The position numbers and the translations under genes are program-made. A DNA stretch of 64,000 nucleotides, from positions 13,089 to 77,088 of the forward strand of contig JBBDYD010000137.1 in assembly GCA_040901865.1 (NCBI GenBank), read 5' to 3'. Of the stretch, positions 19,796 to 55,295 are shown one piece after another. Source of the DNA: Bacteroidota bacterium (GTDB lineage: Bacteria; Bacteroidota; Ignavibacteria; UBA10030). The notes beneath the pieces are model-generated. The model made no database searches, was not told where the DNA came from, and worked only from the letters and a program-made list of their open reading frames with translations. How positions within the stretch are numbered: the stretch's first letter is position 1; every line of letters begins with the position of its first letter.

Positions 19796-19862
19796 CGGTC
19801 TCTTGGACTCTTGAGTTCCTTGCGGTCAGGTCCTTTCGTTCCGCATATTTTGTTTCACCGTT

Positions 19863-21143: not shown

Positions 21144-21159
21144 TTCCCGGGAGGCTTTC

Positions 21160-29693: not shown

Positions 29694-29733
29694 TGGACCT
29701 TTTTTTTCATTTACATGAAGGAGTGCGAATACG

Positions 29734-30420: not shown

Positions 30421-30447
30421 CAGCCCACAGCACATAAGGAGCACACA

Positions 30448-32325
30448 GTGCAGAATGTCGCAACGGCGCCGCACCACGGTGAGGCTGCTCACCACGAAGA
30501 GCGCGCAAGTTTTTGGCGAACATATGTCTTCTCGGTCGATCACAAAGTCATCGGCATCCAGTACATGATGACAGGATTGATTTTTCTGTTTCTCGGCTTC
30601 ACACTGATGATGCTGATGCGATGGCAGATTGCCTATCCCACGAAGTCGATTCCGGGAGAATGGTTCACCCTCCTTCCCGGAGCAATTGCGCTAATCTCCA
30701 TAATTGTCGGATTGATAAGCAAACGGAAGCTCACGATTCTCTTCGGGGTTCTCTTTGGCGGAATCGCCTGGCTTGTTTGGTCCATGGTGTCCGACGAGAC
30801 GCTGTTTCCCCAAGGGATTATGCTTCCGGAGCTCTATAACTCCTTTGGCGCTATGCACGGAACCATCATGGTGTTCCTTGGGGTAGTCCCCATTGCAGTC
30901 GGTGGATTTGGCAACTATGTGGTTCCCTTGCAGGTCGGCGCTCCCGATATGGCTTTTCCGAAACTCAATATGATGAGCTACTGGAGCTATTTTGCCGGTG
31001 GCATCGTCATGTTGTCGAGTTTCTTTATTCCCGGAGGCGCGGCAAATTCCGGATGGACATCGTATCCTCCGTTGTCCGATATCGCAACCACCGGACAGAC
31101 TGTTTGGCTCTTCGGAATGGTATTCCTCATCACGTCGTCTCTCCTGGGATCCGTCAACTTCATTGTGACGATCGTCCAACTCAGAGCGAAGGGCCTGACG
31201 TTCATGCGGCTCCCGTTCTTTGTGTGGGCTCAGCTGGTAACTTCGTTTCTCCTTCTTCTTGCGTTTCCACCTCTTGAAGCCGCTGCGGTTCTTCAGTTAA
31301 TGGATCGCCTTGCCGGTACGAGCTTCTTTTTGCCGAGCGGCCTTGTGATCAGCGGACAGGTTCTCGATGTCTCGGGCGGTGGAAGCCCGCTCCTTTGGCA
31401 GCATCTCTTTTGGTTCCTTGCCCATCCGGAGGTGTACGTGCTGATCCTCCCGGCTATGGGAATCATAGCAGAGGTCATTGCCAACAATACAAGGAAGCCG
31501 CTTTGGGGATATCGCTCGCTCGTCTTCGCAGCTGTGTTTCTGGGATTCATGTCGTTTATCGTCTGGGCCCATCATATGTTCATGACAGGAATGGGAACGG
31601 TGATCAGCACGTTCTTTCAAACCACAACGATGATCATCTCCATCCCGTCAGTCATCATTCTGAGCGCTCTGATCATTTCCCTGTGGGGCGGATCAATTCG
31701 CTTTACGGTTCCAATGTTGTTTGCGGTCGCCTTTCTCCCCATGTTTGGTATTGGCGGACTCACGGGGCTTCCTCTCGGACTTGCGCCTACGGACATCCAT
31801 CTTCATGACACCTATTATGTCATCGGCCATTTTCACTATGTCGTGGCTCCTGGTACGATTTTCGCCCTGTTCGCCGGAATCTATTATTGGTACCCAAAAG
31901 CAACGGGAAGGCTGATGAATACCACGTTGGGAAAGATCCATTTCTGGGGTTCTCTTGCGTGTATGAATGGAGTCTTCTTTCCCATGTTAATCCAGGGGCT
32001 GGCTGGGGTTTCCCGGAGGTTATATGACGGCGGCGCCCAATATGCCCATGCACAGAATGTTCTCCAATGGAATGAAGTAATGTCGGTTTCCGCATGGCTT
32101 CTCGCAATTTTTCAATTGCCATTCATCTTCAACTTCTTCTGGAGCCTGAAAAAGGGGAAAGCGGTGGAATCCGACAATCCCTGGGGAGCTACGACACTCG
32201 AATGGCAAACACCAACGCCACCACCGCATGGGAATTTTTTAAAGGTTCCCGAAGTCTTTAGGGGCCCCTATGAATACAGCGTCCCAAATGCTCCGAAAGA
32301 CTTTCTCGCTCAGAACACTCCATAA
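30448..32325 (+). CDS. ctaD: Heme-copper oxidase subunit I (A-type cytochrome c oxidase)
   Basis: GTG start after AAGGAG. GNYVVPLQVGAPDMAFPKLN, AHPEVYVLILPAMG (helix VI Glu), HHMFMTG, HFHYV motifs. Confidence 0.95.
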   Translation: MQNVATAPHHGEAAHHEERASFWRTYVFSVDHKVIGIQYMMTGLIFLFLGFTLMMLMRWQIAYPTKSIPGEWFTLLPGAIALISIIVGLISKRKLTILFGVLFGGIAWLVWSMVSDETLFPQGIMLPELYNSFGAMHGTIMVFLGVVPIAVGGFGNYVVPLQVGAPDMAFPKLNMMSYWSYFAGGIVMLSSFFIPGGAANSGWTSYPPLSDIATTGQTVWLFGMVFLITSSLLGSVNFIVTIVQLRAKGLTFMRLPFFVWAQLVTSFLLLLAFPPLEAAAVLQLMDRLAGTSFFLPSGLVISGQVLDVSGGGSPLLWQHLFWFLAHPEVYVLILPAMGIIAEVIANNTRKPLWGYRSLVFAAVFLGFMSFIVWAHHMFMTGMGTVISTFFQTTTMIISIPSVIILSALIISLWGGSIRFTVPMLFAVAFLPMFGIGGLTGLPLGLAPTDIHLHDTYYVIGHFHYVVAPGTIFALFAGIYYWYPKATGRLMNTTLGKIHFWGSLACMNGVFFPMLIQGLAGVSRRLYDGGAQYAHAQNVLQWNEVMSVSAWLLAIFQLPFIFNFFWSLKKGKAVESDNPWGATTLEWQTPTPPPHGNFLKVPEVFRGPYEYSVPNAPKDFLAQNTP

Positions 32326-41102: not shown

Positions 41103-41678
41103 TTAATCGAGGGGTGGTTCAAAGCAATTGCGACACCGGGCTTCGTAGATATCCTTGGCGCCGATGAGAACACGGTCTTGCTGCTGTGTCTTCCGCTGCG
41201 TCCGATCCGCTGGATTTCCACACACAACGCAAATTGCGAGGGTCTTGGTTATATATTCTGCTACAGCAAGTAGTTGTGGAATCGGTTCGAAGGGTTTTCC
41301 ACGATAGTCCTGATCGAGCCCCGCAACTATGACCCGTCTGCCTTCGTTAGCGAGTTTCTCGCAAACTTCGACCAGATTGGCTTTGAAGAACTGTGCTTCG
41401 TCGACCCCGATTACCTGAGCATCACGTACCAAGGGGGGGATCTCATCCGCGCTATCTACAGGGTGTGAGGTGATCGATTGTTCGCTATGAGAAACTATAT
41501 GCTCCGCGCTGAATCTCGTATCAATCCGCGGCTTGAAGATTGCAACGTGCTGTTTGGCGATCTGGGCTCTCCGGAGTCTCCGAATGAGCTCTTCGGTCTT
41601 TCCGCTGAACATGCAGCCGCAAATGACTTCGATCCATCCGGTGTTTCTTGGGACAATATGTTGAGCCGATGTATCCAT
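41103..41678 (-). CDS. tdk: Thymidine kinase
   Basis: P-loop [21 protein letters not shown], zinc ribbon CVVCG...ARCRNC. Confidence 0.93.
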
Positions 41679-42088
41679 TATTTTCTTTTTACTGATCGGG
41701 CTAACATCTTGGAATCAAAGGCGATTGGCAGGAGGGACTTGAGTTTTAGCACCTTGGTTCTGGAGGATGACGAAAGCACGACATCGATATTGCCCGCAAG
41801 GTCCCACAGCACTTGTCTGCAGGCCCCGCAGGGCGGAGTCATTTCATTTCCGCTGGAGACAATTGCGATAGCCCGGAATTCGTTGTCCCCTTCGGAGATG
41901 GCTTTGAAGAGCGCCGTCCGTTCAGCGCAGATCGTTAGACTGTAGCTGCTGCTCTCCACGTTACAGCCCCGGTAGATTTTTCCAGAAGTCGTTAGAAGTG
42001 CTGCTCCAACCTTGAATCGGGAGTAGGGAGCATGGGCGTTCAATTGTGCTGCTTTTGCCGAACGGACGAGTGGATGGTAATTTGGCAT
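41678..42088 (-). CDS. cdd: Cytidine deaminase
   Basis: CAERTALF and PCGACRQVL zinc motifs; 136 aa. Confidence 0.9.
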
Positions 42089-42160
42089 GGGGCTCCCGGG
42101 GGTGCTTCAATGGCGGAAAAATATAGGGAACAATGGAGCGAAATGCAACGAAACGAGTTT

Positions 42161-43192
42161 CTAAAACGCGTCCAGCAATGCATTGAAAGGGTGGATCTTC
42201 AGCGTGCAAACACACTGATGGCACTCCTTCAGCCGATACGCCCGTACATCGGTTCTTGTTTCCCTGATCTCCGGTGTGTTAAGCAGATCCGGGAGCGGCC
42301 GCGATCTTACGTTCCCGAACGAGGGAAGGAAATAGCAAGGCAAAACATCTCCCGTTGAACTGATTACCAACGAAACAGACGGTGCGTTGCACTCGTTGCG
42401 TGGAAACGGAGAAATTCCCTGATGGGCTTCGAAATACTCAACCAGATGGATCATTTTTCCGGGAGTCTCAGCAATGAAATGGGTGAGAAATTCGGATTTC
42501 CGCTTTTGGAGCAAATCCTTCACCGATTCCCTGAATACCGCGCACTCTTCAGGATCCAAAAGGATGTCCACCGAAGGTGCAACAGGCCCGACTCGATCTC
42601 TGTGAAATGCATCTGATTGGACGTCCGCTGCGAGGAAGGAAAGCCTGTCGATTCCAAGCCCCTTCGCGAAAACGACCATCTCGTCCAGCTTTCTGAAATT
42701 CCGTCGTTGAACGACAAACCGGACGGAAAGAGATGGTTTGTTGGTGTTTCCGACCATCGCCTCAATACCCCTTACAATCTGATCAAAGCATTCTAATCCG
42801 CGTATCGAATTATGAGTCATGGCATCCGGCCCGTCAAGGGAGATGATGACCTCTTCGAAAAAGGGGAGGATTTCCTTCGCTCGTTTTTCAAGCAATAGCC
42901 CGTTGGTCAGAAGTGTTTGCCGGACACCGGTTCGCTCAGCAATTCTGCAGATTTCCAGAAAGTCTTTTCGCATGAGAGGTTCCCCACCGGAATAAACAAC
43001 GCGACGCAGGCCCATTTGCTGGAGATGCTTGAAAAGCTCCTTGTATTCATCAACAGTCATCTCGCTCGGAAGGGGATCGCGATATGAACAGGTCATGCAG
43101 CGAAGGTTGCAGCCGGCGGTCACGTAGAGAATGACGATCGGAAGAGAATGCGCCCGGGTGCCAACAGTATTCAGAAAGGCCCGATAGTTCAT
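42161..43192 (-). CDS. Radical SAM enzyme with a C-terminal SPASM/twitch-like Cys-rich domain
   Basis: CNLRCMTC (C28/C32/C35, CX3CX2C), SGGEPLM glycine-rich motif. The C-terminus has CNAPSVSLVISSTGDVLPC (CX12GX4C) and CHQCVC. Confidence 0.8.
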   Translation of the reverse strand: MNYRAFLNTVGTRAHSLPIVILYVTAGCNLRCMTCSYRDPLPSEMTVDEYKELFKHLQQMGLRRVVYSGGEPLMRKDFLEICRIAERTGVRQTLLTNGLLLEKRAKEILPFFEEVIISLDGPDAMTHNSIRGLECFDQIVRGIEAMVGNTNKPSLSVRFVVQRRNFRKLDEMVVFAKGLGIDRLSFLAADVQSDAFHRDRVGPVAPSVDILLDPEECAVFRESVKDLLQKRKSEFLTHFIAETPGKMIHLVEYFEAHQGISPFPRNECNAPSVSLVISSTGDVLPCYFLPSFGNVRSRPLPDLLNTPEIRETRTDVRAYRLKECHQCVCTLKIHPFNALLDAF

Positions 43193-43257
43193 TAAAGGCT
43201 TGTTTGTTTGTCCTTTGAGTCGAGGATGTCAGTCATTGAGCGGACAGGGCGCTGTTT

Positions 43258-44655
43258 CTAATAGAGTGATGAGATCTTGAAGGACCTGTAAATGAACTGA
43301 ACGGGCTCAGCAACAGAAGCTTCCCATCGTTTTCGCCCGAAAGGGTCGACCTCCACCAATCGCGGAACTCTGCCGTACGTAATAAACGTATGGCCACCTG
43401 GTAATCTCTGAGCGAACCCCAGTGCAGAAGAGTACAAAGGGGGTGTAGCACGGTATTCCCATACGAGAGTTGCCCGCTTCAGCTGCTCATCGAGGTGATA
43501 TTCCACGGCCCTGCTTTCCTGTGGGGATCGTCTGTTGCCGTTGTCAAAAAGGATAATATTCCTGTTCTCCAGGCGACGGATCCCATGCTGGTGCGAAAAG
43601 CCGTTGAAGGGATCGCCAACGAATTCAAACTCATTATTCTCCCCGCCAAGTCGCCAAACAATATTCCCCGAATTCGCATCGATTTGTGTTACCTCTTCGG
43701 TGTGTCGGAACGAAGCGAGGAGATTTCCGTCAACATCGATCTCGAGGGCATTGCCGTGCCAGGGATTGACATTCTGACCAAGGAGTGAAATGTTGTCTGC
43801 GGCATCGGTCACACTGAAGTGATCGAACGTGTTCCAATACAGAGGGACTGATTCCGGCCTGTAGTATTCTACCACAATCCCTTTTACAATCGCATTTGCG
43901 AGCCCCCCAAACTCCGACAGATCCATTTCGCGATATTCGATTCCGAACAAAACATGGGCATCTCCGTCGATCCGCAATTCATGAACATCGGTTTCCCGGT
44001 TTTCCCTTGCTTGATATGAGCGAACAATGGTCCCCAAAATATCCGCCTCATAAAATTGCGTTGCGTAACCGGGACGGGCAACACAGGCGGTGTAGTTTCC
44101 ATTCGGCTGTTTTTGAAAATCAATCACGGATCCTTCGAATCTTCGATACCAGAGTACATCGCCCACACTGTTAAAAATGACCCCATACGCATGAGCACCG
44201 GCACCTGTAAATCCGGCCATGACGTATCCCGGCGCCGGATTGTCGGATTCATGGATCACAAGTCGTGGCATATCGCTCGGAAGAGATCCCGTCGTAAAGG
44301 TGACGGAATCGCCGCTTCTTTCATGACCGTGTTGCGAGATTGCCACGGGCTTTGCCCAGTACGTTTTTTCCGGCTCCAATCCAAGGAGCGGAATTCGTAC
44401 CGCCTTGTTACCCACGGTCCTCAAGGGCGTGCGGAAATTCATGGACGTATCCGTCCCGTATTCAATTCTGACTGAGACCGCGTTATTGGTTCTGATCCTG
44501 CCAACTGCGCTGAGAATGTTCTCCGGGTTTCCCGATATGTTGAATTCCGTGATTTCCGGCGCGTCGATGGGATTTGAAATCTGAATACCGGTATCGCAAC
44601 CGAGCAGAATGAAAACGGAAACACCGGGGATAATAAACGCTCGAACGGTTGCCAC
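43258..44655 (-). CDS. Lipoprotein with arylsulfotransferase (ASST)-like beta-propeller
   Basis: Lipobox VFILLGC near the N-terminus. An FN3/Ig-like segment is followed by NPWHGNALEIDVDGNLLASFRHTEEVTQIDANSGNIVWRLGG and FSHQHGIRRLENRNIILFDNGN, which are typical of the ASST family. Confidence 0.65.
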   Translation of the reverse strand: MATVRAFIIPGVSVFILLGCDTGIQISNPIDAPEITEFNISGNPENILSAVGRIRTNNAVSVRIEYGTDTSMNFRTPLRTVGNKAVRIPLLGLEPEKTYWAKPVAISQHGHERSGDSVTFTTGSLPSDMPRLVIHESDNPAPGYVMAGFTGAGAHAYGVIFNSVGDVLWYRRFEGSVIDFQKQPNGNYTACVARPGYATQFYEADILGTIVRSYQARENRETDVHELRIDGDAHVLFGIEYREMDLSEFGGLANAIVKGIVVEYYRPESVPLYWNTFDHFSVTDAADNISLLGQNVNPWHGNALEIDVDGNLLASFRHTEEVTQIDANSGNIVWRLGGENNEFEFVGDPFNGFSHQHGIRRLENRNIILFDNGNRRSPQESRAVEYHLDEQLKRATLVWEYRATPPLYSSALGFAQRLPGGHTFITYGRVPRLVEVDPFGRKRWEASVAEPVQFIYRSFKISSLY

Positions 44656-44661
44656 GGTCGT

Positions 44662-46275
44662 TTACCTCGTTTCCTCGCTATTTCGGTTTCGGATACGGAT
44701 CAATGCAAACCTGGCTGGCGGTCGTCGGCCTCGAAGACGGGCAAGGAACGGTCGCAAATTCCAAACGAGGCCGTACGATGGGAAAAACATATCAACGGCA
44801 TACAACGCGCGGAGTTGATCAAGCCCGGTGAATGTCAGGTAACTGCCGGCAAATTCGCTTGTCAATGTCTCCCTTTCGTCGTGCGAAAAAGATTCGATTC
44901 TCTCTTTCATCATCGCTTCACCACTTTCCCCACTGCGATAAATAGGAGAATCAACAATATAGATGCATCCTTTCTGCTTCAACAGTGACATCATCTTCTT
45001 GATTGTTTCATAGGGATCATTCGCATAGTGAAGCGAAGCGTTAAAAATAATGACTTCAAAGGAGTGTTCCGCAAAAGGAAGGAAATCGAATTCCGCTCTC
45101 ACTAAGTTGAACCCGGGCTCCCCAATATCCCGTAACCGCTGAACAACGCCAAGCCCGTCCTCAGGATCCGTATTGGCATCAACGCCGGTAACGCTGTACC
45201 CCAAACGGGCCAGGCGAAGCGAGAGCCAGCAATTTCCGGCCCCAAGGTCGAGAATCTTTTGCGGATCAGTGTGGGTATCCTGAACCAAATGATCAATAAG
45301 GCAATCATAGGATTTGGCACGGATGGCCCACATATCCGAATGTTCGTTGCTCAGATCACGATAGGGAAGCTCATGGTAATAGCGCGGGTCTTTGTCTCCC
45401 CAACGCTCTTTTCGTCTTACCGATTGGTACGTGTTGAGAAACCGGCCGAGAATTGACTGACGGCTTGGGAGGATAAAATCCGGAATGCCATCAACGGTCT
45501 CAAAGAAGAATGATTCGTTTCTGCATTCCCATCCTCCCCGTGATTCCACCAGGGCTCCCCGACATGAAGGACAGTGGAGAATGTCATCCATACTTACGGA
45601 AGGTGTGAATTTGTAGACAAAGAAATCCTCAAAAAGCGTTTGGTGCTGATGAACACGCTGTGCCGTGAACTTGCACTCCGAGAACATTCTCAGAATGCGT
45701 TCGATATCAGCATCAGATGAGAGGATCAGCAGCAGATATCCCCCCGGTTTGAGGAATGCGGCGGCTTGTCGTGAGAATTCCTTGATGACGGACAAATTGC
45801 GTCCACCATAGAGGGCGGGATCGTCGGACGTGTTTTGCCGCTCGTCAAAATACGGGGGATTGAAGATAATCATGTCGAATACTTCGTGGGGGAGCGGATC
45901 AAAGAGAGAACCCTCCAGAACCCTTGTCGCGGAAGCGTATCCGTTCCGGCGAATATTCTCTGAAGCGCACTGGACCGCCTGCGGATTGATATCCGTTGCA
46001 GTCACACGGGCACCCTGACCGGCGGCCAAAAGGGCAAGAATCCCGGAACCGGTCCCCAAGTCGAGGACATGCTTTCCCCGAAGATCCAGAGAGGACAAAT
46101 ATCGAGCGAGGATCCTCCCACTCTTGAAAATACGCGGATGCATGACCGAAGGCTGGATCACAAACTCAAATCCGTTGTGGGATGTTGACACGGGCCGTTT
46201 CAGGCGGGCCCGGTAGAGGAGATTGAACGCAAGAAAATGATACGCAGGACGAAGAATTGCCGACAGGGATTTCAT
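44662..46275 (-). CDS. Fused double methyltransferase: NPPY-type MTase, Trm112-like linker, second class-I SAM MTase
   Basis: N domain VLDLGTGSGILALLAA plus IIFNPPYF. Linker LHCPSCRGAL...ETVDGIPDFILP. C domain ILDLGAGNCWLSLRLA ... IIFNASLHY. ATG 46275 is preferred over TTG 46284. Confidence 0.75.
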   Translation of the reverse strand: MKSLSAILRPAYHFLAFNLLYRARLKRPVSTSHNGFEFVIQPSVMHPRIFKSGRILARYLSSLDLRGKHVLDLGTGSGILALLAAGQGARVTATDINPQAVQCASENIRRNGYASATRVLEGSLFDPLPHEVFDMIIFNPPYFDERQNTSDDPALYGGRNLSVIKEFSRQAAAFLKPGGYLLLILSSDADIERILRMFSECKFTAQRVHQHQTLFEDFFVYKFTPSVSMDDILHCPSCRGALVESRGGWECRNESFFFETVDGIPDFILPSRQSILGRFLNTYQSVRRKERWGDKDPRYYHELPYRDLSNEHSDMWAIRAKSYDCLIDHLVQDTHTDPQKILDLGAGNCWLSLRLARLGYSVTGVDANTDPEDGLGVVQRLRDIGEPGFNLVRAEFDFLPFAEHSFEVIIFNASLHYANDPYETIKKMMSLLKQKGCIYIVDSPIYRSGESGEAMMKERIESFSHDERETLTSEFAGSYLTFTGLDQLRALYAVDMFFPSYGLVWNLRPFLARLRGRRPPARFALIRIRNRNSEETR

Positions 46276-46314
46276 GCAGTTCAATGGAACGGAATTATCG
46301 TAGGAGGAATGCGT

Positions 46315-47793
46315 TCAAAGCCCTTCGATCTCCGGCTGGCGGTACCGAAAGAGACGAAAGAGCAATCGTAGTTCCAGGGGATATGAATACATCTCGGCAT
46401 TGTACCTCCATCGCGTGACAAGGCGCAGCAACTCCCGCCTCTTCTCCGTAAGCCGAATATCTGTCACGGTCGGAAAGAACCCATTGAGGACACGCTCGAA
46501 ATTCTTGAACGTTGCGTAATGCCGGGGCTTCAGCCAGGGAATAACGGGAGTTTTCCTCAGATCAAAATCGTGCCATTTCGGATCGAGCCACTCGTCCAGT
46601 GTTTGCGGGAAACGGAATCCATATTGGCCGGCGAGCCGGAAAAGTTCGGATTCATCAAAAACCACCGGAGCGTACATATACATGATAATCTCCGCCCGCG
46701 GATTTATTTCTTTGATCTTCCGTATGAATCGGATATTCCGGTCAAAGTCCCTGTCAACGTCGTCGCTTGGGCTTCCAAAAACAAAGGAGAATTCCGGGAT
46801 AATGTTGAAACGCTTCAGCCTCTCGGCAAGCAAGAGGACTGTGTCAGGTGTCTGCGTTCCCCCCTTGTTCATTTGCTTCAGTGTATCTTCGGAAGCAGAC
46901 TCGGCGCCAAAGAAGATCATTTTCGATCCGCCCCGAGCCATCAAGTCAAGTGTCTCGTCCGAATAATCTAAAACCGTGTCCGGACGCCCTTCGCCCCACC
47001 AGGCGAGATTGCGGCCGATCAGCTTCGTGGCAACCTCATGTGTCCGCTTTTCGGATGTGAAGAAATTCTCGTCGAAAAACTCCACCGCATTGATCTGATA
47101 CCGACGCTTAAGTTCATCCAGGTCATTCACAATCGATTCTGCAGATTTTGGCAGCCAGCGTGCCTGATACACACTGGCGATTGCACAGAAACCGCAGAGG
47201 AACGGACACCCAAAACTCGAATAGTATGCCGCTGTCCTGGTGCCTAGTGAGGATTTCCCAATATAGCGTTCTCCCTCCACCTTGTCGTAGGGAAGCGGGG
47301 GGAGGAGATTCGGATCGCTTGGACTCCTCAAAGGATTCTGGATTACCTGTCCGTTTCTGCGGAACGAGAGCCCGGGAATTTCGCCGAGGCCCACTCGGCT
47401 ATTGTTCTCGAGCGTATCGATGAGTTCTACAAACGTCTTGTCGCCCTGTCCTCTGACAACATAGTCCACATATCCCGAGGTAAGGACAGTGCCGGCATGG
47501 AGAGTGGAAAAATATCCGCCCCAAATGATGGTAAGGTCGGGGAACCGCTGTTTGAGCCCACGGGAAATCGGAATGGCCTGCATCAATTGAGGCCCTGGCA
47601 TCACCGTAAGACCGAGATACTTGATCTCCCCGCGAGCAACGAGGGCCTCAAGATCTTTCAGGATATGCGGAACTAGGTTCTGGTCAAGGATCCTATAGGG
47701 ATACCTGCCCTCGAGAGCGGTCGCCACGAACATGAGCGAAAGCGGAAAGCGATGTTTCCAGCGGGCGCTTGTGGGATTGAGAAGAGCAATCAT
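46315..47793 (-). CDS. Class-B (B12-binding domain) radical SAM protein, copy 2
   Basis: N-terminal Rossmann-like region (FPLSLMFVATAL, VDYVVRGQGDKTFVELI) followed by FGCPFLCGFCAIAS (CX3CX2C). Confidence 0.8.
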   Translation of the reverse strand: MIALLNPTSARWKHRFPLSLMFVATALEGRYPYRILDQNLVPHILKDLEALVARGEIKYLGLTVMPGPQLMQAIPISRGLKQRFPDLTIIWGGYFSTLHAGTVLTSGYVDYVVRGQGDKTFVELIDTLENNSRVGLGEIPGLSFRRNGQVIQNPLRSPSDPNLLPPLPYDKVEGERYIGKSSLGTRTAAYYSSFGCPFLCGFCAIASVYQARWLPKSAESIVNDLDELKRRYQINAVEFFDENFFTSEKRTHEVATKLIGRNLAWWGEGRPDTVLDYSDETLDLMARGGSKMIFFGAESASEDTLKQMNKGGTQTPDTVLLLAERLKRFNIIPEFSFVFGSPSDDVDRDFDRNIRFIRKIKEINPRAEIIMYMYAPVVFDESELFRLAGQYGFRFPQTLDEWLDPKWHDFDLRKTPVIPWLKPRHYATFKNFERVLNGFFPTVTDIRLTEKRRELLRLVTRWRYNAEMYSYPLELRLLFRLFRYRQPEIEGL

Positions 47794-48656
47794 GTGGATT
47801 TGTTTTCTGCGGGACCAATTAAAGACCGAAGAGCCTCATCAACACCGATGAGGGCTTCATTGGAAGCAACAAGCCGCCGCAGGATGTCAAGTTCCAGAAC
47901 TGAATCATGGCCGAGACCGCCCGGGGAGATGCTCGATGTTCCGTCGCGGTTCCCCAAGGGGTGAAGTTCCGGACCGTTGGTTGAGAGATGGCCGCCGCCG
48001 TGGTAAAACGTCATACCGGTAACATTAACGTGTTCTGGCATGAATCCGAGGACATCGACCAGAGCAATGAACCCGGTCCTTCCCCAATTGCCATTCAGCC
48101 ATTTGATCAAGAGGGTGCTTGCGGTCGTGACAACGCGGAACCGTGTCTCTGGCACTTCGGCGGCAAGGAACCCGGCGAAGTTCTTGAGAACATCTCTGTC
48201 TTTCACTTCGCAGCGCGTTGCGGGATCTCCGTTCGGAGCATAGCTCAAACTGTTATTCGTGCAAACGACGCACTTCAATTTCGCTTTTCGGACAAAGTCG
48301 GTAAAACGGCGTCTGGCGAATCCACCCTCGAGGATGTTCTTACGAATGATGACCTGATTGCAGTACAGGACATCCGTCCGCGAGCCGATGTCAGCGGAAA
48401 GCGGCTTGGAATCTCTGAAATACTCAAACGCGTCATTGAAGCGGACAACGAGATCGTGCGAATCGATCCATTTCCCACGGCTCGCTCCGATTAGTGTTCG
48501 AGCAGGTCCGACGACCGCCACGCGTTTCTTCGCAAGGAGGCCTGTAAACGCCGGATCACGGTCCCAGGCCAACCGCCCGTCACGGATCATCTGCAATTCC
48601 AGGTCGGGAATAGCAGAGGGCCTGTGAGCATTCTGAGATACCGCCGAATGATTCAT
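47790..48656 (-). CDS. GT29 (eukaryote-type sialyltransferase)-like protein
   Basis: RVAVVGPARTLIGASRGKWIDSHDLVVRFNDA...DIGSRTDVLYCN resembles sialyl motif L. RTGFIALVDVLGFMPEHVNVTGMTFY resembles motif S. HDSVLE fits motif VS (H-x4-E). Recognised from memory of the consensus only. Confidence 0.5.
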   Translation of the reverse strand: MNHSAVSQNAHRPSAIPDLELQMIRDGRLAWDRDPAFTGLLAKKRVAVVGPARTLIGASRGKWIDSHDLVVRFNDAFEYFRDSKPLSADIGSRTDVLYCNQVIIRKNILEGGFARRRFTDFVRKAKLKCVVCTNNSLSYAPNGDPATRCEVKDRDVLKNFAGFLAAEVPETRFRVVTTASTLLIKWLNGNWGRTGFIALVDVLGFMPEHVNVTGMTFYHGGGHLSTNGPELHPLGNRDGTSSISPGGLGHDSVLELDILRRLVASNEALIGVDEALRSLIGPAENKST

Positions 48657-49510
48657 TGATGATCCCGGATTGTGACGGCCGTGTGGTTCCTTTGAAGAAG
48701 GACAAGATAATGATCTCCCATCCCGCGCAATAAGGGGAGTTTGCCAACACGAACATCCAGGCCGTCGAGCATTTTGCTTATCCTCGGTAATCGATTCCTG
48801 AAGGCTTGAGCATGCGGGGGAGGGCTGAAGAGGGAAAGTCCCCGAATCATGACCGGATCAAACCAGGGCGAGGCGATTGAGAGCAGTCGTCGGAGGGGAT
48901 GATAATGCACTTCAAATGAGTGTTGGTGGAATCCTGTTGCGCGCACGCCGGATTGAAATCGGCGGAATGCAGACCGGGGGCGCAAACGAGCAAGGCCTGC
49001 GCTGATCTCCCAAAAGCAGGCTCTGGGCATGACGACCCCGAGAAAGTATCCCTTCGGATGTATTGCTCTTGCAACACGAGCGAAAACTGGATCAAGCGAA
49101 TTGGAACAATTCAATCCTCCGAAATTCGAAAGGACAAGGTCAAACGTCCTGCTTCCCAATGAGGACAGGTCTTCAAAAGAGGAGACGAAGAACTCCGTTT
49201 TCAACCCCGGATTCCTGGACGATCGTTTTGCCGCCTGGTCTATCATGCCCGGTGAGACATCGACGCCGGTAATGGAATACCCATCGGCGGCAAGTGCGAG
49301 CGCATCGATGCCGACTCCGCAGTTGATGTCGAGGATTGACGAACCGTGGGGAAGTACGTCACGGATTGATTCATAAACGGTTGTTCGGATTTTCGCCGTG
49401 ACTTCGTTCTCGAACGTCGATTCAAAGATCGGTGCAATTGCACTGAACGCATCGGCAACATCGGTATGCTGGAAATCGGACTCAGGCATGGGTGGGGGAG
49501 GTGCGTTCAA
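48653..49510 (-). CDS. Class-I SAM-dependent methyltransferase
   Basis: Motif I ILDINCGVGIDALALAADG, motif II-like DLVLSNFGGLN; 285 aa. Confidence 0.8.
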   Translation of the reverse strand: MNAPPPPMPESDFQHTDVADAFSAIAPIFESTFENEVTAKIRTTVYESIRDVLPHGSSILDINCGVGIDALALAADGYSITGVDVSPGMIDQAAKRSSRNPGLKTEFFVSSFEDLSSLGSRTFDLVLSNFGGLNCSNSLDPVFARVARAIHPKGYFLGVVMPRACFWEISAGLARLRPRSAFRRFQSGVRATGFHQHSFEVHYHPLRRLLSIASPWFDPVMIRGLSLFSPPPHAQAFRNRLPRISKMLDGLDVRVGKLPLLRGMGDHYLVLLQRNHTAVTIRDHQ

Positions 49511-50969
49511 GCTCCTTCAAGGCCCGTAGGTGATGGGGGAGCGTGATGCCGTGAACCATCATGGAAGCCAGTATTTCGAGAGAACGCCGGTTGACGGAGG
49601 CAGGGCGGACCGAGAGGTCCCGGAGCGTTCTCATGCCCCTCCAAATCCTGAACCGCTTGTGAACCACGGTGTGGAGCACGTGGTAATACTGCCGGCTGAA
49701 CGCGGCCTGAACCATTGGGTCAAAGTCATCACTCGTTTCCCAATTTTGCTTTGCTCCTAATTGGGCTTTGACGCGATCGTAGAATTTCGTTCCAGGAAGC
49801 GGGTACGAGACAGAAATGCCAATTTCATCGGGTTCGAGCCGCCTGACCATGCAAACGGTTTTTTCGATGTCTTCACTGGTTTCACCCGGGTACCCGAACT
49901 GGAGAAAGAAACCAACCCGAATACCGGCATCGCGAAGCATCTCGGTCGCCTGCCCGATTTCCTCGACTGTTGTCCCTTTTTCCATCGCGTCAAGTATCTT
50001 CTGGGATCCGGATTCCGCTCCAACCCAAACCGTCTTGCACCCTGCAGTCTTCAGATGACGGATCGTGTCGTCCCGTAGCAGGAGATCCACGCGTGAGAGA
50101 CACTTGAAGGGTATCGCCGCTCCCTCTCTTTGCACAAGTTCAGCAAATTGTCCAATCCAGCCAGGCTTTAATCCAAATATATCGTCGGTGATCCAGAGGT
50201 GATCGGGATGGATATGGGTTTTAAGGAACTTCATCTCTGCAACGACGTTCTCCGAACTCCGGCTGTTATACACCTGGCCATACAATGGCTTTGAACACCA
50301 ATTACAATGGAAGGGACATCCGCGTGTTGTGGAAATATTGAGGGAAAAATACCCATGCCGCTCTTTCCATATGGCCCGATATCGCTCGATGTCCACCAGA
50401 TCCCAGGCAGGGAAGGGGATCTCGTCAAGGTTCTTTATCGGAGGGCGTCGTGTGGTCAGTACTACCTCGCCTGTTGAATCACGAAACGCCAGGCCTTTGA
50501 TTCCAGATGCATCTGTTCCGGATTTCCGGAGCAACAGCGTGCAGAGTTCTGCCAGAGTCTCCTCTCCTTCACCACAAAGCACATAATCCACGTTACGGGA
50601 AAGATATTTCTCTGCATGATCCGCCGAGTCTGAGCTAAACACAACGACCGTACAGTGTTTCTCCTTTGCATAGAAAGCGAGCTGAAGGGCCGCCTGCCGC
50701 ATTCTGCTCAAACACATCTTTGTCAAATAATTAAAGCAATCATCATAAATCACCACGATGCGTGGTGCCTGCAAGTTCAGGGCCGGAATGATTTCCGATT
50801 CCTGTTCTGAAAGCATCACATCATGGAGACCGACCGAGAATCCCTTGTTCCGGAGGTATGCCGCCGCGGTGATGGTGCCAAGCGGCGGATACGGCATGTG
50901 GGCCCGGAGCTCTTTGGGATCAAAATGGAGGAAGTAGGAATGCGTGAAAAGAATGTCGGTCATGACCAC
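49482..50969 (-). CDS. Class-B (B12-binding domain) radical SAM protein, copy 1
   Basis: YPPLGTITAAAYLRNKGFSV and DYVLCGEGEETLAEL in the N-terminal domain, then TTRGCPFHCNWCSKP (CX3CX2C) and GAESGSQKILD. Confidence 0.85.
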   Translation of the reverse strand: MVMTDILFTHSYFLHFDPKELRAHMPYPPLGTITAAAYLRNKGFSVGLHDVMLSEQESEIIPALNLQAPRIVVIYDDCFNYLTKMCLSRMRQAALQLAFYAKEKHCTVVVFSSDSADHAEKYLSRNVDYVLCGEGEETLAELCTLLLRKSGTDASGIKGLAFRDSTGEVVLTTRRPPIKNLDEIPFPAWDLVDIERYRAIWKERHGYFSLNISTTRGCPFHCNWCSKPLYGQVYNSRSSENVVAEMKFLKTHIHPDHLWITDDIFGLKPGWIGQFAELVQREGAAIPFKCLSRVDLLLRDDTIRHLKTAGCKTVWVGAESGSQKILDAMEKGTTVEEIGQATEMLRDAGIRVGFFLQFGYPGETSEDIEKTVCMVRRLEPDEIGISVSYPLPGTKFYDRVKAQLGAKQNWETSDDFDPMVQAAFSRQYYHVLHTVVHKRFRIWRGMRTLRDLSVRPASVNRRSLEILASMMVHGITLPHHLRALKELERTSPTHA

Positions 50970-51988
50970 TTCTCCGGCGCATCATCAAGTCCGAAGGCAG
51001 CGAGCCGTTTGGAATACTCCTGGAGGATCCGGGAAAGGAAATCACCGGCATAAGCGGTTGAGATCGACTCTTCTGTCCGGAACAGCTTGAGGAGTTTGTC
51101 CTCCGGCAAATGGAGGTAACGCTTTCGCCAGACGGCCCCCCACCATTGCATGAGTCGTTGGTCAAGACGATCTCCGAATGCACCCTTCAGAGGCAGTTCG
51201 AGAAACTTCTGAAAGAGACCTTGCGGTGGCGCCGCGACTCCTTCAGTGGAAACCGAGTGAATGTTGGGATAATATTCGCGGATCCAGGGATTAGAAACAG
51301 CGAGGCGGGAAAAGAAAGGAGCGTTGAACAAGGGTGTAAGCGTTGCAATCTCGAGGGCGATGTATCTGTTCTTTTCGGACACGGAGTAGTAGTCCTCTGC
51401 AATAAAGTGGTTCACGCAGAAAAATTTCTTTTGGTTCAACAAAAAAACTTTTTTGAAAAGGATGAGGATCGTTCGGGTAATCCAAACGCGTTTCGGCGCT
51501 GTCACGACCACAAGGTCGATATCTCCATCTTGAGAGACGACCCCCTTGGAAAGTTCTCCCGAAACCCCAAGTCCTCGGACAAAGGGACATCGTCTGATAA
51601 CCCACGCCATCGCTTTGGCGATTTTCATGAACCATCGCGCGCGCTGTTCGTTTAAACGCCGATCGACGACAGGATTCGTCTCGCTCTGCGAAAGATAATA
51701 CAGTCCCTGGTCCTCTCGCAGGAGTGCGGAAAGGGGTGGGTTCACGCACGCGTGATGAACTTCCGCGAGTGAGGTTGAATTGGAAGGAAGGTAAGTATAG
51801 ATTTCGTTGGAGCTCAGCGGGTAACGAAAAATATCGAAGTAGAGGATGGTCCTCAGCACGTCTCGTTGAAGTGGAGATGGTTCAGACAGCAAGAATGATC
51901 CTGACTCGTTGGCGGTCATTGGCCTATGATGGGAATTCCGGCGTGTGGAGAACCGATGAAAAAATGATACGAAAGAAACGATACGCAC
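50960..51988 (-). CDS. Hypothetical protein with a nucleotidyltransferase-fold (Pol-beta-like) motif
   Basis: GVSGELSKGVVSQDGDIDLVVV fits the G[SG]...DxD minimal NTase pattern. GTG start at 51988, or ATG at 51919 (MTANESG). First gene of the cluster. Confidence 0.4.
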   Translation of the reverse strand: MRIVSFVSFFHRFSTRRNSHHRPMTANESGSFLLSEPSPLQRDVLRTILYFDIFRYPLSSNEIYTYLPSNSTSLAEVHHACVNPPLSALLREDQGLYYLSQSETNPVVDRRLNEQRARWFMKIAKAMAWVIRRCPFVRGLGVSGELSKGVVSQDGDIDLVVVTAPKRVWITRTILILFKKVFLLNQKKFFCVNHFIAEDYYSVSEKNRYIALEIATLTPLFNAPFFSRLAVSNPWIREYYPNIHSVSTEGVAAPPQGLFQKFLELPLKGAFGDRLDQRLMQWWGAVWRKRYLHLPEDKLLKLFRTEESISTAYAGDFLSRILQEYSKRLAAFGLDDAPEKWS

Positions 51989-52029
51989 GCAATGTCAGAG
52001 GCCACCATCGAATGTGCCTGCACTGTTTC

Positions 52030-52058
52030 TTGTAACTCAATGGAGATTTCTCTATATT
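52030..52058 (+). promoter_or_regulatory. Candidate sigma70-like promoter ending 8 nt before the PASTA gene ATG
   Basis: TTGTAA (52030-52035), a 17-nt spacer, then TATATT (52053-52058). ATG is at 52067. Confidence 0.35.
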
Positions 52059-52066
52059 CGTGATGC

Positions 52067-52828
52067 ATGTTGACAATCCCACCAAAAATCCTTTCGTTTG
52101 GCAAACGCGGTCTTATTCTCTTTGGAATTCTATTGATTCTGTTCTTCCTGGTGGACAATATTGTGATGCCGCGGTATGTACAACAAGGGGAAACGACACA
52201 CGTTCCCGAGGTTGTAGGCATGGAGACGGAGGAGGCGTTGAGAATTCTTGCAGAGGCCGGCCTCGAAGGCAAGGAAGCCGAAATGCGGCCTGACAAGAAC
52301 TATCCCGAGGGTACGGTTGCTGCCCAAACGCCGCTTTCCGGGGCTGAAGTCAAGTTTGGTCGTGGAGTGTACCTGACGATCAGCGGGGGTGAGACTCTTG
52401 TGACCGTCCCATCCTTGCGCGGGCGGTCTTTGAGAGACGCCGTTCTCTCACTTGAGCGATTTGGCCTTAAGACAGGCGAGACAAAGTATCAGGTATCTAC
52501 TCAGTTCCCTGAGAATACCGTTATTGACCAATTCCCGGGGCAAGGTGCAAACGTCAAAAGTGGAACGCGGGTCTCGATCACCGTCAGCCAGGGCGCAATC
52601 GCTGATCGCGTTCCTGTTCCGAACGTCACCCGGAGAAGTCTTGGAGAGGCTGAGCGCCTGTTGCTCCAGGCAGGGCTCACGGTGGGTATTATCACCATGC
52701 AAGTGAATAATGATTTTCTCCCGAACACCGTGATCGATCAGTATCCCCGGCAGGGAACGTTTGCCGTTCGGGGAGAAGCGATTCAGTTGTTTGTCACCCA
52801 GCGGGGGGAACAACCCCTGGAGAACTGA
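52067..52828 (+). CDS. Stand-alone PASTA-domain membrane protein (three PASTA repeats, no kinase or PBP domain)
   Basis: N-terminal TM LILFGILLILFFLV. Three repeats begin VPEVVGMETEEALRIL, VPSLRGRSLRDAVLSL and VPNVTRRSLGEAERLL. Confidence 0.8.
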   Translation: MLTIPPKILSFGKRGLILFGILLILFFLVDNIVMPRYVQQGETTHVPEVVGMETEEALRILAEAGLEGKEAEMRPDKNYPEGTVAAQTPLSGAEVKFGRGVYLTISGGETLVTVPSLRGRSLRDAVLSLERFGLKTGETKYQVSTQFPENTVIDQFPGQGANVKSGTRVSITVSQGAIADRVPVPNVTRRSLGEAERLLLQAGLTVGIITMQVNNDFLPNTVIDQYPRQGTFAVRGEAIQLFVTQRGEQPLEN

Positions 52829-54674: not shown

Positions 54675-54812
54675 CTCCCCGACATCCTCATATTTTTTCC
54701 AAAAAACCTCTTGACAGGGCGATCTTTATACCTTACCTTTATAAGGTCAAAAGGATATTCCGCCTTACTTATTTCGTCCCTCGCTGTTTATTTCCTTATT
54801 TAGTGCGCCTTC

Positions 54813-55268
54813 ATGGATGACATTGACGTTAAGATCCTCGATATCCTTCAAAAACAGGGAAGAACGCGTCGCAACGACCTGGCGGAACGAGTCAGCCTGT
54901 CCCTTCCGTCGGTCAGCGAGCGACTGAGGAAGCTTGAAGAGTCGCAAGTCATTATCGGATACTTTGCCAAGCTGGACCATAAGAGACTCGGAAAGGATAT
55001 CACGGCCTTTATCGTTGTCACCGTTGATTCCTCGAGGCATTTTTCGTCGTTTGTCGAGCACGCCCACACCGTCGATGAAATCCTGGAATGTCACGCAATC
55101 ACCGGAGATGGGACGCATCTCTTGAAAATCCGAACCGAGAATACCGGCAGCCTCGAGAAACTCCTCGCGAAAATTCAATCCTGGCAGGGAGTGGTCAAAA
55201 CCACAACAAGTATGGTCCTCTCCACAGCAAAAGAGACATTCAGAATAAAAGTCAGCAACCACAAATGA
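54813..55268 (+). CDS. Lrp/AsnC family transcriptional regulator
   Basis: HTH DDIDVKILDILQKQGRTRRNDLAERVSLSLPSVSERLRKLEE plus a C-terminal RAM/ACT-like domain; 151 aa. Confidence 0.88.
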   Translation: MDDIDVKILDILQKQGRTRRNDLAERVSLSLPSVSERLRKLEESQVIIGYFAKLDHKRLGKDITAFIVVTVDSSRHFSSFVEHAHTVDEILECHAITGDGTHLLKIRTENTGSLEKLLAKIQSWQGVVKTTTSMVLSTAKETFRIKVSNHK

Positions 55269-55295
55269 TCCACTCACACTAATCCGGGAGCACGT

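Follow-up and report, generated by a model that had tools for sequence, protein, structure and literature searches.

The B12-radical SAM C-methylase Fom3 of fosfomycin biosynthesis acts only once a CMP handle has been attached by the cytidylyltransferase domain of Fom1. In the gentamicin pathway, C-methylation by the B12-radical SAM enzymes GenK and GenD1 and class I N-methylation by GenN take place on the same sugar, while proteusin (polytheonamide) clusters bring several B12-radical SAM C-methylases (PoyB/C) together with an amide N-methyltransferase (PoyE). O-antigen, capsule and exopolysaccharide loci of the Wzx/Wzy type hold variable content in a fixed slot with conserved housekeeping genes on either side. 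No characterised envelope-glycan locus is known to us in which two to four B12-radical SAM enzymes occur together with a dedicated Pol-beta-type nucleotidyltransferase. Bacterial GT29 sequences have no transmembrane domain and no L/S disulfide cysteines, and the published set is proteobacterial, with Alphaproteobacteria making up most of it (19 of 23) (Petit et al. 2018, PMC5811610).

Here we analyse a gene cluster in a 64,000-nt stretch (the window) of an Ignavibacteria genome. With moderate confidence, we interpret the region as a single species' form of a locus for cell-envelope glycan tailoring that is widespread in Bacteroidota but uncharacterised. Literature searches returned no description of the locus, and searches of NCBIfam, PDB sequences and folds, and the literature yielded no characterised counterpart, in line with the first-pass annotation, which had been unable to match the cluster to a known pathway.

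Results

The cluster consists of eight minus-strand ORFs (g1 to g8 in transcription order). Their coordinates, overlaps and gaps were confirmed as first annotated, and domain, motif and structure searches upheld the domain calls. The ORFs of g1-g2, g2-g3, g3-g4 and g4-g5 overlap by 4 to 29 nt, and the remaining intergenic gaps are too small for a precursor gene. The co-directional run was correctly described for the eight genes; however, it does not end at 42161 but continues past g8 through cdd and tdk (41103 to 42088, minus strand), nupC and a PNP/UDP phosphorylase gene to 38886. On the other side lies a plus-strand PASTA-domain gene (52067 to 52828), which is outside the pathway. The reported absence of PKS/NRPS, terpene or lipid synthase and CMP-sugar synthetase genes from the cluster was upheld, as was that of a precursor peptide: no conserved ORF of 25 to 89 aa was found near 80 loci.

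The ORF of g1 is open to 51988, but its homologs begin at 51919, and the start is most likely M24, which gives a protein of 319 aa (50960 to 51919, minus strand). It is predicted to begin with a winged helix, followed by a Pol-beta-type nucleotidyltransferase core and, at the C terminus, a helical domain. Window g1 itself gave no match to Pfam; assignment of the nucleotidyltransferase fold is based on weak PF01909 matches in 21 of 32 family members and on the AlphaFold model (pLDDT 90.7), the core of which resembles MNT/ANT-type nucleotidyltransferases. The fold match is weak (best Foldseek E value, 0.02), which counts against glycan tailoring, and the CDP-DAG synthase Tam41 is also among the weak matches. 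The core carries SGELSKG...GDIDL with invariant D133, D135 and E190. The protein represents a novel family.

The next gene, g2 (49482 to 50969, minus strand), encodes a B12-binding-domain (class B) radical SAM enzyme with the motif CPFHCNWC. Radical_SAM was matched, and the B12-binding domain scored 30.9 bits, slightly below the Pfam cutoff of 32.1. The best NCBIfam match was HpnJ (147 bits; cutoff, 577), the lipid-biosynthesis B12-radical SAM model TIGR04072 also scored, and a PhpK/Fom3-type model reached only 105 bits (cutoff, 600). Among solved proteins, the closest to g2 is QCMT/MgmA, a protein glutamine C-methylase (PDB 9CCB; E value, 1e-20), which again counts against glycan tailoring. 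Since all matches to characterised B12-radical SAM enzymes fall far below the family cutoffs, methylation, as opposed to other radical chemistry, is an assumption.

g1 invariably opens the locus with g2 as its constant partner, and g2 orthologs are 58 to 68% identical. Among the species-level GTDB genomes in which this could be checked, g1 was followed directly and co-directionally by g2 in 68 of 70 loci, with the two spaced by a median of about 32 nt. In two loci (L028 and L031), both are fused into one protein of 814 to 816 aa. Elsewhere, the g1 domain is fused to a methyltransferase, to GT4 (P0299) or to the polyprenyl-phosphate sugar-1-phosphate transferase domain PF02397 (Bac_transf; P0315), and the latter two fusions both sit inside Wzy_C/GT4/RgpF/carbamoyltransferase loci. 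A g2-type radical SAM fused to GT4 was found as well (L004).

g3 (48653 to 49510, minus strand) encodes a class I SAM methyltransferase (Methyltransf_25/11), a type that 45 of 78 loci carry and that is fused to a GT29-like domain in L012, L014 and L023. g4 (47790 to 48656, minus strand) encodes a soluble GT29-like glycosyltransferase of the sialyltransferase fold. It matched PF00777 with 32 bits (cutoff, 23) over the motif-L region only, and the top 30 PDB matches of its model were exclusively GT29 sialyltransferases (best E value, 7e-10). The protein carries L/S/III/VS-like sialyl motifs and, like the published bacterial homologs (PMC5811610), lacks both a transmembrane domain and the L/S disulfide cysteines; it differs from them in its placement in a radical SAM/methyltransferase operon and in the occasional methyltransferase fusion of its type. 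Found in 8 of 80 GTDB loci and in 4 contigs from the g4 search itself, g4 is an accessory gene of the locus.

g5 (46315 to 47793, minus strand) encodes the second B12-binding radical SAM enzyme (CPFLCGFC; B12-binding, 37 bits, plus Radical_SAM), a distinct subfamily whose next gene downstream is usually a HemK-like methyltransferase. In the window, this neighbor is g6 (44662 to 46284, minus strand, the longest ORF beginning at 46284), which fuses an MTS/HemK-type N-methyltransferase domain with NPPY, a Cys-rich linker (CPSC...C) and a Methyltransf_11 domain; in L010, the two halves are separate genes. The N-domain scored best with HemK/MTQ2-type models and matched the GenN structure 5u18 with an E value of 3e-9. 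g7 (43258 to 44655, minus strand) encodes an exported ASST-like beta-propeller lipoprotein (PF05935 and PF14269; lipobox LLGC). It occurs in only three loci (the window, L002 and L013) and is a lineage-specific accessory. g8 (42161 to 43192, minus strand) encodes a radical SAM/SPASM enzyme with CNLRCMTC, CX12GX4C and CHQCVC that recurs in 15 related loci at 51 to 71% identity. Its closest solved relative is the cytosylglucuronate decarboxylase BlsE, and its best model score was obtained with the sactipeptide maturase StsB (121 bits; cutoff, 625).

The cluster had been regarded as an orphan, but its core belongs to a very large locus family: g1 has relatives in over 531 GTDB species, which form 6,499 clusters at 50% identity, and nearly all of the best 80 loci are labelled Bacteroidota. 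The genes do form a coherent syntenic set, as their order recurs in other genomes at 40 to 70% protein identity, and the arrangement is far beyond chance. The conserved unit, however, is not the set of eight but the g1-g2 pair, which a g3-type methyltransferase and another B12-radical SAM usually accompany; g5 with a HemK-like methyltransferase constitutes a second recurrent module. Around the core, the content varies by species and includes class I methyltransferases, further B12-radical SAMs, the SPASM radical SAM, glycosyltransferases (GT9, GT4, GT2, GT87 or GT29-like) and Wzx- and Wzy-type proteins. Recurring neighbors are GT9 (20 loci), GT4 (16 + 5), GT87 (16) and GT2 (4), in addition to Polysacc_synt/Wzx, Wzy_C, an MsbA-like ABC transporter and an AlgX-like SGNH protein. 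In Ignavibacteria, the locus lies in a fixed slot bounded upstream by the PASTA gene and downstream by cdd-tdk, with species-specific glycosyltransferase content; in other lineages, cdd-tdk does not adjoin the cluster. Among 48 loci whose downstream sequence reached 8 kb or more, 19 had no recognised member of the recurrent glycosyltransferase/Wzx/Wzy families, and minimal four-gene modules such as L092 likewise lack a glycosyltransferase, Wzx and Wzy. The window version encodes just one glycosyltransferase and lacks a flippase, a polymerase, an initiating transferase and any nucleotide-sugar gene.

Discussion

The first-pass annotation had seen no recognisable scaffold enzyme. Sister loci and fusions, however, carry ordinary glycan-assembly genes (GT9, GT4, GT2, GT87, Wzx, Wzy_C and Bac_transf), so the most likely scaffold is a glycan whose genes lie elsewhere than in the trimmed window version. 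Of the products suggested earlier, a surface molecule is the one favored by the evidence. The fixed slot with variable content also resembles Wzx/Wzy loci, from which the window version differs by its missing assembly genes. Glycan tailoring is further supported by the g1-g2 adjacency and fusion, by the fusions of g1 to GT4 and PF02397, of GT4 to a B12-radical SAM and of a methyltransferase to a GT29-like domain, by the GT29-only PDB matches of g4 and by the lack of a conserved small ORF. In addition, the nearest solved or curated relatives of several proteins work on sugars (AprD4 and HpnJ for g2, GenN for the g6 N-domain, BlsE for g8 and ANT/KNTase-type enzymes for g1). The lone glycosyltransferase and missing assembly genes of the window version and the loci and L092-type modules without glycan genes argue against it.

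We infer the substrate, the product and every chemical step of the following scheme from gene content, synteny, domain fusions and predicted folds. Most likely, a cytoplasmic pathway puts unusual methyl groups (C-, N- and O-methylation) on a cell-surface sugar polymer, which could be an LPS-core, O-antigen or exopolysaccharide-type glycoconjugate. g1 would activate a sugar or lipid-linked sugar, by adding a nucleotide or phospho-handle or in some other way, and g2 would then modify one of its unactivated carbons, C-methylation being the most likely reaction. Mechanistically, this obligate pair is best compared with Fom1/Fom3, where a nucleotidyltransferase is likewise paired with a B12-radical SAM; the Fom1 domain is of another family than the Pol-beta/MNT-type fold with winged helix predicted for g1, and the g1-g2 locus has a glycan-assembly context and no PEP mutase/phosphonate gene. 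g5 and the HemK/GenN-like domain of g6 may together introduce one more C-methyl group as well as an N-methyl group, a pattern seen in gentamicin's garosamine unit; their adjacency recalls GenD1 with GenN. g3 and the second g6 domain would supply O- or N-methyl groups, g8 could catalyze radical oxidation, decarboxylation or epimerisation of a sugar, and g4 might transfer a CMP-activated acidic sugar. After export, the g7 lipoprotein could modify the product further.

The relatives among aminoglycoside and nucleoside antibiotic enzymes (AprD4, GenN and an apramycin N-methyltransferase, BlsE and aminoglycoside nucleotidyltransferases), together with the same-strand cdd, tdk, nupC and nucleoside phosphorylase genes downstream, could instead indicate a diffusible sugar- or nucleoside-based small molecule. 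We regard this as unlikely: similarity to aminoglycoside enzymes is at the superfamily level only, scaffold genes (e.g., 2-deoxy-scyllo-inosose synthase and aminotransferases) are lacking, the cdd-tdk linkage is lost outside Ignavibacteria and the locus associates with Wzy_C, Wzx, Bac_transf and GT9. Moreover, this conserved chromosomal feature of the phylum, unlike an actinomycete antibiotic cluster, keeps its slot in hundreds of species, while antibiotic clusters are usually patchy. Modification of a hopanoid- or PIM-like lipid or glycolipid head group would fit the HpnJ and TIGR04072 scores of g2, the Tam41 match of g1 and the recurrent GT87 (PimE-like) and GT4 genes. It appears very unlikely, given scores well short of the family cutoffs, Bac_transf fusions and Wzy_C/RgpF co-location that point to polyprenyl-linked glycan assembly, and the absence of squalene-hopene cyclase, hpnH/G/I and lipid synthase genes from every examined locus.

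Peptide or protein modification, as in proteusin-like RiPPs or methyl-coenzyme M reductase, would mean that a ribosomal product is the target of the B12-radical SAM C-methylases and of a HemK-type glutamine/asparagine N-methyltransferase and is crosslinked by the SPASM enzyme. The QCMT, HemK/MTQ2 and StsB similarities and weak matches to the RiPP C-methylase models ApyD and rSAM_ocin_1 speak for this. All of these matches are far under their family cutoffs, though, and the locus has no NHLP/Nif11 precursor, leader-type gene, RiPP recognition element (RRE/PqqD), epimerase or protease and neither conserved small ORFs nor gaps that could hold them; the neighborhood and fusions involve glycosyltransferases, Wzy and Bac_transf instead, so that we give it a similarly very low probability. 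Still more improbable is the chance packing of two or more unrelated operons. The rarity of g7 and g4 and the separate or reordered g1-g2(-g3) and g5-HemK modules of other genomes would agree with it, and a consensus promoter and terminator scan did not delimit transcription units; yet reading frames overlap throughout g1 to g5, the modules share one slot in many species and fusions cross module borders, including that of g1 to a B12-radical SAM.

g4 widens the bacterial GT29-like family to Ignavibacteria/Bacteroidota.

The locus and its setting

Eight minus-strand open reading frames (ORFs), here called g1 to g8 in transcription order, were found between positions 42161 and 51988 exactly where the first-pass annotation had placed them, with the claimed overlaps of 4 to 29 nt and gaps of 6 to 65 nt. 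Its domain calls for g2 to g8 were upheld by Pfam and NCBIfam. The g1 product is a predicted nucleotidyltransferase (NTase); g2 and g5 combine a B12-binding domain with a radical SAM domain (motif CPFHCNWC in g2, CPFLCGFC in g5); g3 encodes a class I methyltransferase and g4 a GT29-like protein; g6 joins a HemK/MTS-type domain with NPPY to a Methyltransf_11 domain; g7 matches ASST families and has an LLGC lipobox; and g8 is a radical SAM protein with a SPASM domain. Some boundaries had to be revised. The annotated ORFs are real, but homologs place the start of g1 at M24 of its 342-aa ORF (window 51919, 319 aa), and the longest g6 ORF begins at 46284. Likewise, the co-directional run is present but goes on past 42161 via cdd, tdk, nupC, and a nucleoside phosphorylase gene to 38886.

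The flanks consist of housekeeping genes and mobility genes were not found in the window, in agreement with the earlier description; GC content is flat over the whole window, and its nearest relatives are labeled Ignavibacterium or Ignavibacteriales. An Rfam search of the window returned only two tRNAs, both far from the locus, and a sigma-70 promoter/terminator scan, which does not cover Bacteroidota promoters, gave the same counts as shuffled sequence. Elsewhere in the window, two long ORFs overlap on opposite strands at 54765-55277; the plus-strand ORF (54813-55268) encodes an AsnC/Lrp regulator, and the longer minus-strand ORF, which has no family match, is probably spurious. At 27060-32325, a COX1-type oxidase subunit gene has a gene for a large, 877-aa multi-haem cytochrome c upstream of it, and a BshC (bacillithiol synthesis) homolog is encoded at 22308-23951.

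A conserved g1-g2 pair within a modular locus

At least 531 GTDB species-representative genomes contained relatives detected by a g1 profile, and the best 80 loci were examined. Nearly all of these carried Bacteroidota, Ignavibacteria, or Bacteroidia labels, and they include a locus of the cultured Acidiluteibacter ferrifornacis S-15. Of the 70 loci in which the downstream DNA was long enough, 68 had a g2-type radical SAM gene next after g1 on the same strand (median gap, about 32 nt). The g3-type methyltransferase was present in 45 of 78 loci, the g8-type SPASM enzyme in 15, and ASST in 3 only. A second, paralogous B12-radical SAM (about 463 aa) was common, the g5-type enzyme was typically followed by a HemK-like methyltransferase, and the minimal form comprised four genes, namely, g1, a B12-radical SAM, a methyltransferase, and the second B12-radical SAM. 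The eight-gene synteny that the first-pass annotation had in mind therefore held only for its core: judged by the near-constant adjacency of g1 and g2 against the patchy occurrence of g3, g4, g7, and g8, the conserved unit is the g1-g2 pair, whereas the eight-gene set is not one and the remainder is modular. This modularity was apparent among individual relatives. One with 60 to 88% identical proteins had all eight genes and, in addition, a GT87 gene between the same flanks; a more distant one had split methyltransferases and a GT87 gene, without the ASST gene; and a third carried g1 to g6 only, within wholly different flanks.

Within Ignavibacteria, the slot between a PASTA gene (52067..52828, plus strand) and cdd-tdk (41103..42088, minus strand) is fixed (window 41103-52828; related loci L002 and L010-L048), and its contents vary by species, mixing GT9, GT4, GT2, GT87, GT29-like, SPASM, and ASST genes. 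A fixed position with variable glycosyltransferases is a pattern typical of variable surface-glycan loci and recalls a hypervariable surface-antigen locus. A pathway role of cdd, tdk, nupC, and the nucleoside phosphorylase gene was rejected because their linkage is kept only within Ignavibacteria; L006, L092, L093, L094, and the Bacteroidia loci lack it, and these genes were taken as the slot boundary. The cultured flavobacterium A. ferrifornacis S-15 (L079; NZ_WWNE01000006.1, about 408-419 kb) has the g1-g2 core. Alongside it is a convergent set that encodes a HemK-like protein, two B12-radical SAMs, a methyltransferase, a SPASM enzyme, a GDSL/SGNH protein, and a multi-pass membrane protein (394 aa) that has no annotation. 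This strain constitutes an experimental entry point.

An unnamed, predicted nucleotidyltransferase family

The window g1 protein matched no Pfam or NCBIfam family, and PDB sequence searches with the single protein and with the family profile alike gave no match. In its AlphaFold model (pLDDT 90.7), a winged helix at the N terminus and a helical domain at the C terminus flank a minimal Pol-beta-type NTase core. Foldseek searches of the PDB with this model returned no match at E<=1e-3; the best match of the core was the MNT antitoxin MntA (probability 0.99, E 0.02), followed by weaker matches to ANT(4'), AadA, DrrA, and Tam41. The signature SGELSKG-x6-D133-I-D135 plus E190 (G121..S124-K125, D133-x-D135, E190) was invariant in 32 homologs, of which 21 weakly matched PF01909. 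Together with the alpha/beta NTase core, it supplies the Pol-beta motif hG[GS]x9-13Dh[DE]h and the third carboxylate, with the second NTase-motif residue of the family being E, D, S, or T, not G or S. Identity among g1 orthologs was 35 to 50%. A search of 1.84 billion representative proteins with the g1 profile yielded 6,499 relatives (clusters at 50% identity), 1,778 of them at E<=1e-30. On the basis of the modeled core, the invariant catalytic signature, and the number of relatives, we predict that g1 represents a large NTase family that has no name and is probably active. The public annotation of g1 is a 261-aa protein (P0087), compared to 319 aa from the homolog alignment; the deposited gene model is probably truncated, and the 319-aa form includes the winged-helix domain.

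Radical SAM enzymes and other putative tailoring enzymes

In both g2 and g5, a B12-binding domain at the N terminus precedes a radical SAM domain that contains CX3CX2C (PF02310 plus PF04055), the arrangement of class B enzymes; PF02310 scored 30.9 bits in g2, slightly below the cutoff of 32.1, and 37 bits in g5. Neither protein belonged to a characterized class B subfamily among the NCBIfam models tried (HpnJ, BchE, PhpK/Fom3, QCMT, ApyD, HpnR, and others). The best curated models for g2 were HpnJ (147 bits; cutoff, 577) and BchE (140 bits; cutoff, 481), and that for g5 was BchE (115 bits), all far under their cutoffs. Hopanoid, BchE, and ladderane assignments were rejected since NCBIfam scores were 4 to 10 times under the cutoffs. 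HpnR reached 81 bits against 650, and no hpn or shc gene was found in the window flanks or related loci, so that scores and neighboring genes both bear out the earlier observation that the hpnP/hpnR context is absent. The best solved relatives of g2 were the MCR glutamine C-methyltransferase (9CCB, E 1e-20) and AprD4. Its orthologs are unusually well conserved (58 to 68% identity), and the orthogroup comprises at least 8,000 clusters (90% identity) at E<=1e-60. In the metagenome-assembled genomes (MAGs) of L015, L025, L071, and L078, B12-radical SAM genes are split into 2 to 4 ORF fragments, which represent either pseudogenes or assembly frameshift errors.

The N-terminal domain of g6 resembles PrmA, HemK, and N6AMT1, as well as the gentamicin N-methyltransferase GenN. 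The g8 protein was assigned to the radical SAM/SPASM enzymes by PF04055 (73.6 bits), PF13186 (44.5 bits; cutoff, 21.5), and a CX3CX2C core, and it carries CX12GX4C and CHQCVC, the last Cys motif being shorter than the canonical CX2CX5CX3C; the solved protein most similar to it is the cytosylglucuronate decarboxylase BlsE. The g7 protein resembles the solved sulfotransferase 9kf6 (E 4e-20).

Glycan-assembly neighbors and domain fusions

All ORFs around the 80 loci were clustered, and representatives were scanned against Pfam. Glycosyltransferases recurred beside the core, namely, GT9 (20 loci), GT4 (16 + 5), GT87 (16), and GT2 (4), as did membrane metallophosphoesterases, Polysacc_synt/Wzx, Wzy_C with TPR repeats, an MsbA-like ABC exporter, an AlgX-like SGNH protein, and amidohydrolases. 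Of the Wzx/Wzy-type components (initiating polyprenyl-P transferase, flippase, polymerase or ligase, and several glycosyltransferases), the window holds g4 only. Such components do occur in relatives with the g1-g2 core: Bac_transf, Wzy_C, GT4, and RgpF were found in L094 and L093; Wzx was found in L030, L040, and L074; and GT9, GT4, and GT87 were found in L091.

Fusions were detected as well. In L028, L031, and P0218, g1 and g2 form a single protein of 814 to 816 aa. The g1 domain is also fused to GT4 (P0299), to a methyltransferase (P0327), and to Bac_transf, a polyprenyl-phosphate sugar-1-phosphate transferase (P0315). A 931-aa protein (L004:1-1192) joins a GT4 to a g2-type B12-radical SAM that is 53% identical to g2, and a g3-type methyltransferase is fused to a GT29-like domain in single ORFs of 562 to 567 aa in L012 (12433-14121), L014, and L023. 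The loci holding the GT4::g1 and Bac_transf::g1 fusions encode Wzy_C, GT4/DUF1972, RgpF, a carbamoyltransferase, and a sugar epimerase. A g2 ortholog (51% identity) comes directly after the fusion in L094. These domain fusions tie g1-, g2-, and g3-type enzymes to glycan assembly.

On its 847-kb contig, the L004 fusion belongs to a less compact cluster that also has Wzx, a GT29-like gene, an amidohydrolase gene, and two genes with a metallo-beta-lactamase fold. In L094, the polysaccharide locus with the GT4::g1 fusion directly adjoins an IS21-type transposase and IstB pair (19346-21636); thus, some versions of the module may be mobile.

A GT29-like protein outside Proteobacteria

The g4 protein matched PF00777 (GT29) with 32.2 bits (cutoff, 23) over residues 44-122 only, the motif L region, and 63 of the 86 g4 family members found had a precomputed PF00777 call. 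Within a family of 31 sequences, VVGPA..G..IDSHDLVVRFN, GRTGF, MTFYHGGGH, and GH250-DS-x-L-E255 were invariant or nearly so. L-, S-, III-, and VS-like sialyl motifs, including motif VS H250-x4-E255, are thus present by the definitions in general use and those in PMC5811610. All of the top 30 PDB matches of the g4 AlphaFold model (pLDDT 85.4) were eukaryotic GT29 sialyltransferases, and the best, ST8SiaIII (E 7e-10, probability 1.0, TM about 0.5), identifies a GT-A variant 2 fold. Eukaryotic GT29 members feature motif L/S disulfide cysteines and a type II membrane anchor. In g4, we found no cysteine at the motif L/S disulfide positions and no N-terminal hydrophobic segment that could form such an anchor. 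It is similar in both respects to the bacterial GT29 homologs reported from Proteobacteria in 2018, which have neither a transmembrane anchor nor the disulfide cysteines (PMC5811610).

No CMP-sugar synthetase was found in the locus. A GT29-like gene was present in 8 of the 80 GTDB loci (L011, L012, L014, L023, L024, and others) and in 4 contigs from the g4 search itself (L002, L003, L006, L007, L010, and similar). Since stand-alone genes 47 to 49% identical to g4 occur outside any radical SAM cluster (L008:10001-10693 and L009:10001-10807), g4 is no marker for the cluster. Each lone gene is adjacent to a gene encoding a large Ribonuc_L-PSP (RidA)-domain protein, and the one in L008 also neighbors a sulfotransferase gene. 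Finding such a rare bacterial GT29-type transferase within a defined operon of a non-proteobacterial lineage is relevant to the debate on where eukaryotic sialyltransferases came from.

A proposed role in envelope-glycan tailoring

As an obligate and in some cases fused pair, g1 and g2 are linked, at times by fusion, in a modular way with methyltransferases, further radical SAMs, and glycan-assembly enzymes and sit in a variable chromosomal slot. We slightly favor the reading that the locus tailors an envelope glycan. It most resembles the tailoring module of a Wzx/Wzy-type polysaccharide locus with aminoglycoside-style radical SAM sugar chemistry. Any single mechanistic step carries much less weight than this reading as a whole. 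All soluble enzymes would be cytoplasmic and would act on a sugar that is either nucleotide-activated or linked to polyprenyl. The g1 protein may attach a nucleotide or phospho-handle, by analogy to the cytidylyltransferase Fom1, which readies the substrate of the B12-radical SAM Fom3, and g2 would then perform radical C-methylation. Further C-methyl and N-methyl groups could come from g5 and the HemK/GenN-like domain, analogous to GenD1 and GenN in garosamine formation, with g3 and the second domain of g6 as possible sources of O- or N-methyl groups. The g8 protein might catalyze a radical redox or decarboxylation step on a sugar, and g4 might transfer a CMP-activated acidic sugar. The exported g7 would act after export, if it is part of the pathway at all, and the initiating transferase, flippase, and other glycosyltransferases of the MAG would be encoded elsewhere.

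Other products were weighed against a glycan. A diffusible sugar- or nucleoside-derived metabolite appears improbable; the cdd-tdk linkage is lost outside Ignavibacteria, and the relatives of the locus recur beside glycan-assembly genes. Modification of a peptide or protein is somewhat less probable again. The locus does contain a SPASM enzyme, but the intergenic gaps of the window leave no room for a precursor gene. No conserved family of 25- to 89-aa ORFs was found near the 80 loci, where the only small-ORF "family" consisted of frameshifted g2 pieces, and NHLP/Nif11 precursors were absent. A RiPP/proteusin pathway was therefore rejected as the main explanation, and the earlier report of no precursor-peptide gene now extends to conserved ORFs down to 25 aa. 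We give an equally low standing to modification of a lipid head group; the Bac_transf fusion and the Wzy_C and RgpF neighbors favor polyprenyl-linked glycan assembly. Lowest of all ranks a composite of unrelated operons: although genes other than g1 and g2 come and go among relatives, fusions join several of the enzyme types.

Returning to envelope-glycan tailoring, a more specific version is tentative and rather doubtful as a whole: the g1 NTase would tag a sugar within an envelope glycan that is lipid-linked or nascent, and g2 would then alkylate an unactivated carbon of that sugar. The pair would be an unrecognized two-enzyme system and the first case of a bacterial cell-surface polysaccharide modified by radical SAM/B12-dependent chemistry, occurring in hundreds of Bacteroidota species and tying envelope structure to cobalamin availability.

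The locus lies outside every characterized cluster. As the first-pass annotation had proposed, it matches no characterized pathway: every equivalog-level test failed, and no description of the cluster was found in the literature on GT29/B12-radical SAM clusters, Bacteroidota/Ignavibacteria, and polysaccharide. The accompanying view of a singular orphan cluster is not supported, given how widespread g1 relatives are and their glycan context. The locus is thus less singular than was held and, as an unstudied, phylum-wide, B12-dependent system, arguably more important; its unusual part is the NTase and B12-radical SAM core. If the reading is true, functions would be defined for an unannotated NTase family and for the B12-radical SAM orthogroup of g2, and new C-methylated sugars would be predicted in LPS or exopolysaccharides. 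Many environmental Bacteroidota (Ignavibacteria and lineages such as Flavobacteriales and Saprospiraceae) would use 2 to 4 cobalamin-dependent radical SAMs to decorate an envelope glycan, a type of chemistry that, to our knowledge, has been described only for antibiotic and cofactor pathways, and their surface structure would depend on the supply of vitamin B12.
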